A stretch of DNA of 2,037 nucleotides, taken from the NCBI RefSeq assembly GCF_003334815.1, contig NZ_QOWO01000089.1; one strand, given 5' to 3'. The stretch comes from Escherichia coli. Lineage in GTDB: Bacteria > Pseudomonadota > Gammaproteobacteria > Enterobacterales > Enterobacteriaceae. Positions within the stretch are counted from its first letter, which is position 1. Every line of letters starts with the position of its first letter. The position numbers and the translations under genes are program-made. Shown here one piece after another: positions 1 through 2,037 of this stretch. The notes under the pieces were generated by a model. That model had not been told where the DNA came from. It searched no databases and saw only the letters and a list, made by a program, of their open reading frames with translations.

Positions 1-846
1 AACCAGATGGACCCGGTGTACACGCCGGCGCGAAAAATCCACCTGTACCACTGCGACCATCGCGGCCTGCCGCTGGCCCTTATCAGCAAGGAAGGGACAA
101 CAGAATGGTGCGCAGAATACGATGAATGGGGCAACCTGCTGAATGAAGAGAACCCGCATCAGCTGCAGCAGCTTATCCGCCTGCCGGGGCAGCAGTATGA
201 TGAGGAGTCCGGCCTGTATTACAACCGCCACCGCTATTATGACCCGCTGCAGGGGCGATATATCACTCAGGATCCGATTGGACTGAAGGGGGGATGGAAC
301 CTGTATGGATATCAATTGAATCCGATATCAGACATCGACCCCTTGGGTTTATCTATGTGGGAGGATGCAAAATCGGGGGCATGTACTAATGGTCTTTGCG
401 GCACACTATCCGCTATGATAGGTCCAGATAAATTTGATTCTATAGATAGCACCGCATATGGCGCCTTAAATAAAATAAATAGCCAATCTATTTGCGAAGA
501 TAAAGAGTTCGCTGGTTTAATATGTAAGGATAATAGTGGCAGATATTTCTCAACAGCACCTAACCGAGGAGAAAGAAAAGGATCATATCCATTCAATAGC
601 CCTTGCCCTAATGGTACTGAGAAAGTATCAGCTTATCATACTCATGGTGCAGATAGTCATGGAGAATATTGGGACGAAATATTTTCAGGTAAAGATGAGA
701 AAATAGTTAAAAGTAAAGATAACAATATCAAGTCATTTTATTTAGGTACGCCCAGTGGTAATTTTAAAGCAATAGATAACCACGGGAAGGAAATAACAAA
801 CAGAAAAGGATTACCTAATGTCTGCAGAGTTCATGGTAATATGTAA
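1..846 (+). CDS. Rhs family protein, C-terminal portion (end of conserved core plus variable C-terminal toxin domain); 5' partial, ORF is open to the window start
   Basis: Frame 1 is open from nt 1 (aac cag atg...) to TAA at 844-846. The translation contains the conserved Rhs core end ...[45 protein letters not shown], followed by an unrelated AT-rich tail. The core portion matches E. coli RhsA/RhsB-type core ends as I recall them; which paralog cannot be decided from this window. Confidence 0.9.
337..351 (+). other. Rhs core / C-terminal tip junction motif DPxGL (DPLGL), predicted autoproteolytic release site for the toxin tip
   Basis: Codons gac-ccc-ttg-ggt-tta at 337-351 encode DPLGL at the end of the PxxxxDPxGL hyperconserved Rhs region. 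Nucleotide composition drops sharply just downstream. In Rhs/YD-repeat proteins this motif marks the core/tip demarcation and aspartyl autoproteolysis site (established knowledge). Confidence 0.8.
352..846 (+). other. Variable Rhs C-terminal toxin domain (Rhs-CT), about 164 aa, activity unknown
   Basis: Sequence after DPLGL ([17 protein letters not shown]...[22 protein letters not shown]...NVCRVHGNM) is AT-rich and unrelated to the core. It has six Cys and an HTH...SGKD arrangement (HTH at nt 637-645, SGKD at 685-696). Position and composition are typical of a displaced polymorphic toxin tip. Confidence 0.7.
805..810 (+). promoter_or_regulatory. Shine-Dalgarno-like element (AAAGGA) for the 818 start codon
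   Basis: aaagga at 805-810, 7-nt spacer, ATG at 818. It lies inside the 3' end of the toxin ORF, consistent with translational coupling. Confidence 0.4.
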
Positions 847-1201
847 AAAAATATTGTTTAGGAACTGTGTCATTGTATCTTTGTTTGTTTTTACATACAA
901 CACATGGGCGCAGTGTAATAATAATATTAAAATAATGCGCAAGTATGAAAGTGAAGGTAAATATACCGTTAGAAATTTGGTTAAAAATAAAGCTATAGCA
1001 TTGGAATTAGCTGAGATATATGTTAAGAATCGTTATGGACAGGATGCCGCAGAAGAAGAAAAACCATACGAAATCACTGAGTTAACAACAAGTTGGGTTG
1101 TTGAAGGTACCATTCACTTAGACCAAATTGCTGGTGGGGTTTTTATTATAGAAATAGGCAAAAATGATGGGAGAATTCTGAATTTTGGCCACGGAAAATA
1201 A
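818..1201 (+). CDS. Putative cognate Rhs immunity protein (127 aa), possibly with N-terminal signal peptide or membrane anchor
   Basis: ORF starts 29 bp before the toxin stop codon (818 vs 846) and is preceded by an SD-like AAAGGA. AT-rich like the toxin tip. N-terminus [32 protein letters not shown] has a basic n-region, hydrophobic core and a TWA-Q candidate cleavage site. Size and position match what I recall of yhhH downstream of rhsB in E. coli K-12, unverified. Alternative in-frame starts at 833 and 935 cannot be excluded. Confidence 0.6.
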
Positions 1202-1292
1202 GTATGTAAGGATAATCAAACATCGTGTGCGCTGATGGCAGAGTAGGTGGAGGACTCCAGACAGTCAAACGATAGAAAAAGATAGCCTTTAT

Positions 1293-1297
1293 GGAGG
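1293..1297 (+). promoter_or_regulatory. Shine-Dalgarno (GGAGG) for the ATG at 1306
   Basis: ggagg at 1293-1297, 8-nt spacer, ATG at 1306. The ATG at 1291 used by the ORF track overlaps this SD and is probably not the true start. Confidence 0.5.
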
Positions 1298-1305
1298 TTC
1301 CTGCA

Positions 1306-1689
1306 ATGTCAAATACATACCAGAAAAGAAAGGCAAGTAAAGAGTATGGTTTATATAATAAATGTAAGAAACTAAATGATGATGAATTATTTCGCTTACT
1401 TGATGATCGCAATTCCTTGAAAAGGATTTCATCTGCCAGAGTATTACAGTTAAGAGGGGGGCAAGACGCTGTTAGATTGGCAATTGAATTCTGCACTGAC
1501 AAAAATTATATCCGTAGAGATATCGGAGCATTTATACTCGGGCAAATATAAATTTGCAAAAAATGCGAAGATAATGTTTTTAATATTTTGAACAATATGG
1601 CATTGAATGATAAGAGTGCTTGCGTTCGAGCTACGGCAATCGAGTCAACGGCCAGGGAAAGATCATCAAAAGTTCACTTTTTGCACTAA
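1306..1689 (+). pseudogene. yibA: YibA-like HEAT-repeat protein gene (Rhs-associated orphan immunity-type gene), disrupted: in-frame TAA at 1549-1551 and 3' truncated
   Basis: Translation from 1306 (MSNTYQKRKASKEYGLYNKCKKLNDDELFRLLDDRNSLKRISSARVLQLRGGQDAVRLAIEFCTDKNYIRRDIGAFILGQI*) closely matches my recollection of the N-terminus of E. coli YibA, encoded next to rhsA. The same frame stays open after the TAA for 45 more codons (ICKKCEDNVFNILNNMALNDKSACVRATAIESTARERSSKVHFLH, stop at 1687-1689), indicating a recent nonsense mutation. Full-length YibA is about 280 aa, so the gene is also truncated. Confidence 0.6.
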
Positions 1690-1770
1690 ATAATTCGCAT
1701 TTTATGTTTAAAAATTGAGATATTCCTTATTACCTGAAGCTGTTTTTTATTGCTTATACATGATCAAATA

Positions 1771-1790
1771 CTCCTTACCTAATTAAGGAG
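1771..1790 (+). promoter_or_regulatory. Hairpin sequestering the transposase ribosome-binding site (stem ctcctta / taaggag, 6-nt loop); SD AAGGAG at 1785-1790
   Basis: ctcctta (1771-1777) is the exact reverse complement of taaggag (1784-1790), with loop cctaat (1778-1783). The 3' arm contains the SD located 6 nt upstream of the ATG at 1797. Such structures commonly limit transposase translation from read-through transcripts in IS elements. Confidence 0.5.
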
Positions 1791-1796
1791 AACAAA

Positions 1797-2037
1797 ATGG
1801 AACTTAAAAAATTGATGGAACATATTTCTATTATCCCCGATTACAGACAAACCTGGAAAGTGGAACATAAATTATCGGATATTCTACTGTTGACTATTTG
1901 TGCCGTTATTTCTGGTGCAGAAGGTTGGGAAGATATAGAGGATTTTGGGGAAACACATCTCGATTTTTTGAAGCAATATGGTGATTTTGAAAATGGTATT
2001 CCTGTTCACGATACCATTGCCAGAGTTGTATCCTGTA
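1797..2037 (+). CDS. ISAs1-family transposase (H-repeat-associated protein), N-terminal 80 codons; 3' partial, continues beyond window
   Basis: Not in the supplied ORF track because it has no stop inside the window. ATG at 1797 with strong SD; translation [80 protein letters not shown] matches my recollection of the N-terminus of E. coli H-rpt proteins (YhhI/YdcC/YbfD type, ISAs1 family), which classically accompany rhs loci. Confidence 0.85.

Follow-up and report, generated by a model that had tools for sequence, protein, structure and literature searches.

The 3' end of rhsB in E. coli raises the question of why a single open reading frame should change markedly in base composition before it stops, and of where exactly that change lies. 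In the stretch of DNA analysed here (2,037 nt in full, hereafter the window), an earlier note had placed a sharp break at the DPLGL codons, and had read it as the edge of a horizontally exchanged toxin module that is released by self-cleavage directly behind those codons. Based on annotated matches, the window comprises the 3' end of rhsB, followed by yhhH, a relic of yibA and the start of ISEc1. Its full-length identity is 99.8-99.9% to E. coli chromosomes numbering thousands, and a single match covering at least 80% of it was found in 2,786 of 5,426 complete E. coli genomes. The closest matches (99.9%) are other commensal and ETEC isolates, not K-12, with which the window shares 99.8% identity across rhsB-yhhH-yhhI, corresponding to few base differences. 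The K-12 counterpart consists of the last 846 nt of the 4,236-nt rhsB CDS and the DNA 3' of it, in a locus flanked by nikR on one side and by yhhH, yhhI and yhhJ on the other. Genome annotation gives the order rhsB, yhhH, a HEAT-repeat pseudogene and yhhI (the ISEc1 transposase). Some strains carry an IS1 insertion within the same stretch, either between rhsB and yhhH (match H17) or inside rhsB (match H38). No stop interrupts frame 1 of the window before the one at 844-846 and, when the K-12 CDS coordinates are carried over, window codon i is RhsB residue 1130+i. The features on which the argument draws are as follows.

1..300, + strand: 3' end of the conserved rhsB core, encoding RhsB residues ~1131-1230, part of the C-terminal aspartyl-protease plug
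271..285, + strand: first DPIGL motif; its Asp (nt 271-273) is D1221, the predicted first catalytic aspartate
301..351, + strand: transition segment encoding 17 residues, with GC 41.2%, GC3 0.47 and ~70% identity to other cores
322-351, + strand: PxxxxDPxGL, inside the transition segment (301..351)
337-351, + strand: DPLGL, inside the transition segment; counting from the ATG at nt 7, it ends in Leu 115
351..352, + strand: predicted autoproteolytic cleavage point, L1247 (nt 349-351) / S1248 (nt 352-354), by homology
352..846, + strand: RhsB C-terminal tip, Tox-JAB-2/DUF4329, 164 aa and stop (Pfam match nt 448-804)
818..1201, + strand: yhhH, predicted Imm-NTF2-2 immunity gene (ORF, Pfam PF15631, annotation)
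1254..1652, + strand: relic of an rhsA-type module, 97.2% identical to L012:1700-2098 (rhsA end and yibA)
1653..2037, + strand: left part of ISEc1 ('H-repeat'), ISAs1 family; yhhI starts at nt 1797 (NF033564 transpos_ISAs1 match)

Exact computation bore out the GC values that the earlier note had counted by hand, giving 58.3% for nt 1-60, 48.3% for nt 361-420 and 35.0% for nt 421-540 (33.3-36.7% in the 60-nt windows within the latter). Instead of the uniform composition that the note had named as the outcome contradicting it, there is a marked drop in both GC and GC3. By segment, GC is 57.7% (nt 1-300), 41.2% (301-351), 47.8% (352-420) and 35.0% (421-846), with corresponding GC3 values of 0.72, 0.47, 0.39 and 0.23 (the last over nt 421-843). 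A single change-point placed on all bases gave an LLR of 27.3, where 1000 shuffles reached 9.4 at most; placed on third codon positions it gave 29.0, where the highest value among 2000 shuffles was 9.6. The shift is therefore far beyond chance, but it is stepwise rather than sharp, with GC already down from nt 301. The local shoulder of 48% GC at nt 352-420 arises because the linker encoded there, rich in Gly/Ala/Cys/Ser/Thr, has GC-rich second codon positions (0.61). The maximum-likelihood break for all bases falls after nt 413 (2-log-unit support 292-466) and the optimum for GC3 is at the end of nt 363 (support 300-381). Both intervals contain the DPLGL codons, yet composition by itself does not suffice to place the switch there.

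The same pattern holds across the whole K-12 rhsB gene, in which the core has 61.6% GC and the tip 36.6%, with successive 300-nt windows of the core holding 57-67%. The AT-rich tract 3' of the K-12 core runs for ~2.7 kb, up to the end of the IS element, and spans yhhH, the yibA relic and non-coding DNA as far as that element. A promoter and terminator scan of the window returned fewer promoter-like sites than were found in shuffles, and none of note at the junction.

The window was also compared with 13 other rhs alleles, drawn from the K-12 rhsA, rhsC and rhsD loci and seven other loci. Identity to cores of the rhsA/rhsC class is 94-99% up to nt 300; identity to the other alleles is 62-79% over nt 301-324 and 37-78% over nt 325-351 (ranges that leave aside the IS3-interrupted row from isolate 162), and after nt 351 it is at random level. 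Thus, as the earlier note had expected, the downstream segment is not conserved among rhs alleles. Among proteins, all alleles with an intact junction keep ...DP(I/M)GL(K/E)GGW(N/S)xYxYxLNP, the core of isolate 162 ending at ...GGW because of its IS3 insertion, and past GL no relationship remains. The nine residues leading up to GL differ among alleles and for the most part follow the tip: NPVINVDPQGL is invariably joined to the VDINLYPES tip, and NPVQYIDSMGL to the ASKYGH tip. The 301-351 segment has 31-49% GC in 13 of the 13 other alleles, which implies that the exchanged DNA usually includes the PxxxxDPxGL codons. For many alleles BLAST homology stops at nt 324, and the best matches to nt 100-700 of the window in genomes that do not have this tip end at nt 351-354, 330-331 or 324. 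The break in DNA homology and GC therefore lies at ~nt 300 in the window allele and at ~nt 324 among other alleles, so that a junction at DPLGL is right at the level of the protein but 27-50 nt late at the level of the DNA.

Where the window allele itself recombined is a narrower question. By a slight balance of the evidence, we favour a junction at ~nt 300, after ...GGWN, with the cassette supplying the final 17 codons of the core, PxxxxDPxGL and the second catalytic Asp among them. The fall from 94-99% core identity to 62-79% in nt 301-324 points to this site, as do the 41% GC of nt 301-351 (and the 31-49% found there in all 13 other alleles), the co-variation of the last nine codons, for the most part, with the tip among other alleles, and the end of BLAST homology at nt 324 in many alleles. 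Against it, rhsC and the RIVM orphan have identical DNA through nt 351 and differ only beyond, so junctions exactly at 351 also occur, and matches in several genomes reach nt 351-354. The 70% identity over nt 301-351 could, moreover, be due to a core end that is under weaker constraint and diverged longer ago, and the compositional support interval (292-466) cannot choose between the sites.

The domain content of the core end agrees with a boundary in the protein at DPLGL. Pfam RHS (PF03527) matches residues 13-49, and the NCBIfam RHS_core model (NF041261) matches over profile positions 1146-1261 of 1261, ending at residue 117 (nt 351). Rhs_assc_core (TIGR03696) is matched over positions 1-76 of 76, with 87.7 bits against a cutoff of 32.5, and ends at the same residue 117 (nt 351). 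The 10-residue end of the RHS repeat-associated core, of the PxxxxDPxGL type, is present at nt 322-351. Upstream of the window, K-12 RhsB (L001) has eight PF05593 repeats at E<=0.001 and a DUF6531 domain in its first 700 residues.

The last ~105 core residues align to P. protegens RhsA (7q97) with E=1e-24, and further structures aligned to the core end include Salmonella bongori Rhs (8qjd), Tse5 (8cp6), Tse15 and P. laumondii Rhs1 (7pq5). Alignments to these Rhs effectors range from E=1e-24 to 1e-16, while TcC and YenC2 of the Tc toxins are more distant (~1e-6). The deposited chains 8qjd, 8qjb, 8cp6_B, 8qja, 4o9x and 6h6g all end at the residue aligned with the Leu of nt 349-351. In RhsB the motifs are arranged as DPIGL, 17 residues and DPLGL, placing the two Asp 22 residues apart. 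Paired motifs 17 residues apart have been reported before (PMC8636562); in P. laumondii Rhs1, the second DPLGL contains D1338, the substitution D1338N blocks cleavage and the toxin starts at A1343 (PMC8636562). In P. protegens RhsA, D1324N and D1346N, again 22 residues apart, block both cleavage and killing (Gunther et al.; PMC8765631). By analogy with these effectors, a cut between L1247 and S1248 of RhsB (nt 351/352) is a well-founded inference. No experiments on RhsB cleavage, toxicity or YhhH immunity were found in the searchable literature.

The tip beyond this point is matched by DUF4329 (PF14220) over residues 150-268 with E=3.8e-39. A JAMM-type metal site is predicted at E (nt 505-507), H-T-H (637-645), S (685-687) and D (694-696). 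Across 65 aligned sequences there is no variation at E52, S112 and D115, and conservation at H96, T97 and H98 is 90% or higher. Fold prediction gave matches to JAMM/MPN proteins and RadC, and the predicted fold is of the JAB/MPN (deaminase-like) kind. Taken together with the modelled fold, the RhsB tip is predicted to be a JAMM-like zinc hydrolase. Zhang et al. (2012; PMC3482391) gave the signature 'E, H[ST]H, S, D' for Tox-JAB-2 (= DUF4329), paired it with Imm-NTF2-2 and guessed at a nuclease role. What literature was found on yhhH/rhsB, DUF4329 and Tox-JAB-2 consists of in-silico catalogues, with no experiments among them.

A word-indexed homolog search yielded little beyond E. coli fragments, and the close relatives of the tip that it found are almost all from E. 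coli, with the addition of Salmonella enterica subsp. salamae at 75%. The wider family required an exhaustive search, which identified 730 tip relatives at E<=0.001, many of them the C-termini of proteins 1,300 to 7,386 residues long. Within E. coli, copies of the tip in thousands of genomes share at least 99% identity. A second, more distant version is found in K-12 itself, where the RhsD tip (rhsD-ybbC, L004:15041-16257) has 52% protein identity to the RhsB tip; the RhsB and RhsD cores are ~80% identical in DNA. The RhsB tip has six cysteines, five of which are kept in RhsD.

The yhhH gene shares its first 29 nt with the end of rhsB, and its product matches Imm-NTF2-2 (PF15631) over residues 60-127 with E=5e-26. 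YhhH is 56% identical to YbbC, whose gene follows the homologous RhsD tip. From this gene order and these matches, YhhH is predicted to be the cognate immunity protein of the Tox-JAB-2 tip. Because the RhsB and RhsD tips are homologous and YhhH and YbbC are as well, they represent an old toxin/immunity pair, more diverged than the cores to which it is attached. Two K-12 rhs loci, rhsB and rhsD, thus carry diverged versions of one toxin/immunity family, and both versions are AT-rich.

The N-terminus of YhhH (window 818-920) is hydrophobic and signal-peptide-like, and YbbC (L004:15935-16010) likewise has a hydrophobic, signal-peptide-like start (...FFILFAC). Along with the cysteine-rich tip, these N-termini hint at an envelope or periplasmic target, as opposed to the nuclease role guessed in 2012. 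Two modest proposals concern the position of the junction and this hint, respectively: the exchange unit would start 27-50 nt upstream of the cleavage site, each tip bringing its own PxxxxDPxGL, including the second catalytic Asp, to which it may be co-adapted; and the Tox-JAB-2 tip may be an envelope JAMM-type metallopeptidase instead of a cytoplasmic nuclease. We advance these proposals tentatively, and consider them rather less probable than not.

Downstream of yhhH, nt 1254-1652 hold the final 32 nt of a tip of the rhsA type (Ntox34), a spacer and the first 347 nt of yibA, a HEAT-repeat gene. NCBIfam PRK09687 matches the yibA relic over profile positions 1-81 of 285. The relic has a nonsense codon at nt 1549-1551, where TAA stands in place of the AAA of yibA, and ISEc1 cuts it off at 1652/1653, the point from which similarity to other ISAs1 copies begins. 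The left edge of the relic (nt 1254) marks the right edge of the DUF4329 and yhhH cassette, which therefore extends from about nt 300 to 1253. In the laboratory strain Origami2-DE3 (L010:5595-8732), an rhs fragment that begins at window nt 202 is found 3' of lnt, at a distance of a few hundred bases, and is followed by a transposase annotated ydcC and then by pptA. This arrangement suggests a large rearrangement through rhs or H-repeat copies.

Evidence that tip and core have travelled separately comes from other strains. In isolate 162 the rhsA locus, which lies between yibF and yibH, carries this same tip together with yhhH and a full-length yibA. Conversely, in FXCREC043 the Rhs gene adjoining yhhJ, that is, at the rhsB locus, has a different tip, and farther downstream lie the last 86 nt of the window's tip, a copy of yhhH with a frameshift, yibA and a piece of an orphan Rhs gene. 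The same tip at two loci, and different tips at one locus, support the claim that tip and immunity gene are swapped together onto a GC-rich core by C-terminal displacement. The Rhs gene that bears this tip in isolate 162 (L011:4447-6553) is split by IS3 at the equivalent of window nt 294-297, almost exactly the core/tip DNA boundary. The FXCREC043 region (L013:1438-10352) as a whole contains NTF2-fold, DUF6258, pentapeptide fragments, the frameshifted yhhH, yibA, the orphan Rhs and a sel1 gene; this series of immunity-type genes and relics behind the Rhs gene resembles a graveyard of immunity genes or a poly-immunity array.

The term 'horizontally exchanged' needs to be qualified. Exchange between E. 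coli loci and strains is apparent, but no foreign donor or mobile vehicle was found. A search for such a vehicle gave no phage match and no genuine plasmid copy, the seven 'plasmid' matches being records of at least 1 Mb (4.8, 1.3 and 1.0 Mb), non-mobilizable records of 2-19 kb or weak immunity-gene matches. Since the close tip relatives found are almost all from E. coli, with no phage or genuine plasmid copy among the matches, 'horizontal' here means exchange within the species or genus. The window also has no dissociated (orphan) tip bearing a core fragment, only the 32-nt tip end and the yibA relic. Dissociated tips that do carry a core fragment are present at the K-12 rhsA, rhsC and rhsD loci. 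The window's own history would therefore be one of cassette replacement and/or deletion, not of displacement by the textbook single crossover; the cassette seems to have taken the place of most of an rhsA-type tip.

With a probability of roughly 0.9, we interpret the window as the junction of the GC-rich beta-cocoon core of RhsB with an AT-rich, exchangeable toxin tip, followed by yhhH, the parts having differing histories. What is observed comprises the breaks in composition and in homology, the identities of the domains, the geometry of the motifs and the presence of the same cassette at another locus; cleavage, toxicity, immunity and a delivery route are what we infer in addition. In this reading the core finishes with an aspartyl-protease plug containing a pair of DPxGL motifs, whose aspartates would, once the protein has folded, cut the chain right behind Leu-Gly-Leu (nt 351/352), freeing the 164-residue Tox-JAB-2/DUF4329 domain, and YhhH would neutralise the freed domain in the producer. 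Homologous recombination may keep the core near-identical among rhs paralogs, while cassettes of tip and immunity gene (~nt 300-1253) would move between rhs loci and strains by recombination in the shared core DNA. The different histories of core and tip would then be the cause of the composition break.

The break might instead be attributed to amino-acid composition, with a Gly/Pro/Arg/Tyr-rich YD core giving way to a Lys/Asn/Ser-rich toxin and no difference in history. Although the second-position GC of 0.61 in the 352-420 linker shows such an effect locally, the change from core to tip is greatest in the third codon position, with a GC3 of 0.72 in the core and of 0.23-0.25 in the tip. With the signal mostly in GC3, the shift is mainly synonymous and not an effect of the amino acids; the AT-rich tract, furthermore, goes on through yhhH, the yibA relic and non-coding DNA. 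An artefact of amino-acid composition was rejected on the grounds that GC3 carries most of the signal, and we regard it as the least probable of the explanations considered. Hardly more credible is that the tip diverged in place, through rapid mutation or diversifying selection, and became AT-rich by mutational bias with no exchange of modules. Tips can evolve faster than cores or be older, and the 52% protein identity of the RhsB and RhsD tips, compared with ~80% DNA identity of the cores, fits this account. The at least 99% identity of the tip over thousands of genomes and its presence at two chromosomal loci speak against it, and led us to reject hypermutation in place. Other tips on near-identical cores, moreover, have no detectable similarity to this one, and Jackson et al. 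(2009; PMC2935791) also concluded against divergence in place. Exchange of a tip and immunity cassette on a shared core thus remains the preferred reading.

The delivery of RhsB is a separate matter, and one to which the composition break does not speak, any more than it does to the target of the Tox-JAB-2 tip. No vgrG, hcp, eag chaperone or other T6SS genes were found beside rhsB in the K-12 locus, and no functional T6SS is known from K-12-type strains. A PAAR domain at the N-terminus of K-12 RhsB was not supported, the match there being weak (E=0.23 over 18 residues). P. laumondii Rhs1, P. protegens RhsA and Tse5 are T6SS Rhs effectors, whereas the N-terminus of RhsB has DUF6531 and this marginal PAAR match.

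At the other end of the protein, RhsB shares the paired DPxGL motifs, the Asp spacing and the aligned chain ends with the T6SS Rhs effectors for which aspartyl autoproteolysis has been proven, and with TcC and YenC2. Cleavage has been demonstrated for Rhs1/Tre23 (7pq5), RhsA (7q97) and P. aeruginosa Tse5 (8cp6), whereas for RhsB it is a prediction from homology. With the Tox-JAB-2/Imm-NTF2-2 pair of Zhang et al. (PMC3482391), the window shares both Pfam matches, the E/H[ST]H/S/D signature and an N-terminal context of RHS repeats. An abrupt divergence after DPxGL, together with orphan tip/immunity modules, was also described by Poole et al. (2011; PMC3150448).

Jackson et al. (2009; PMC2935791) reported tips shared among clade I loci and proposed C-terminal displacement. 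In keeping with that model (Jackson, Thomas, Parkhill and Thomson), rhsB has a shared core, non-homologous tips and displaced relics. [quoted passage not shown]

The closest comparison is with E. coli K-12 RhsA-E, studied in the laboratory of C.W. Hill, because it concerns the same gene, with its G+C-rich core and A+T-rich 'core extension'. That architecture, and the sharing of tips between loci, are summarised from the work of Hill's laboratory in PMC2935791; the RhsB extension of 164 aa falls within the reported 130-177 aa (PMC2935791), and nothing essential sets the window apart from K-12 rhsB. The principle and the rhsB locus itself were in the literature from the 1990s to 2012, and the break is thus a correct rediscovery of a long-known, textbook feature of rhsB, already known from Hill's group, Jackson et al. 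(2009) and Zhang et al. (2012). The break marks the switch from a delivery shell to a swappable toxin tip and the probable site of its release, and so aids both annotation and the design of experiments on RhsB-CT/YhhH.
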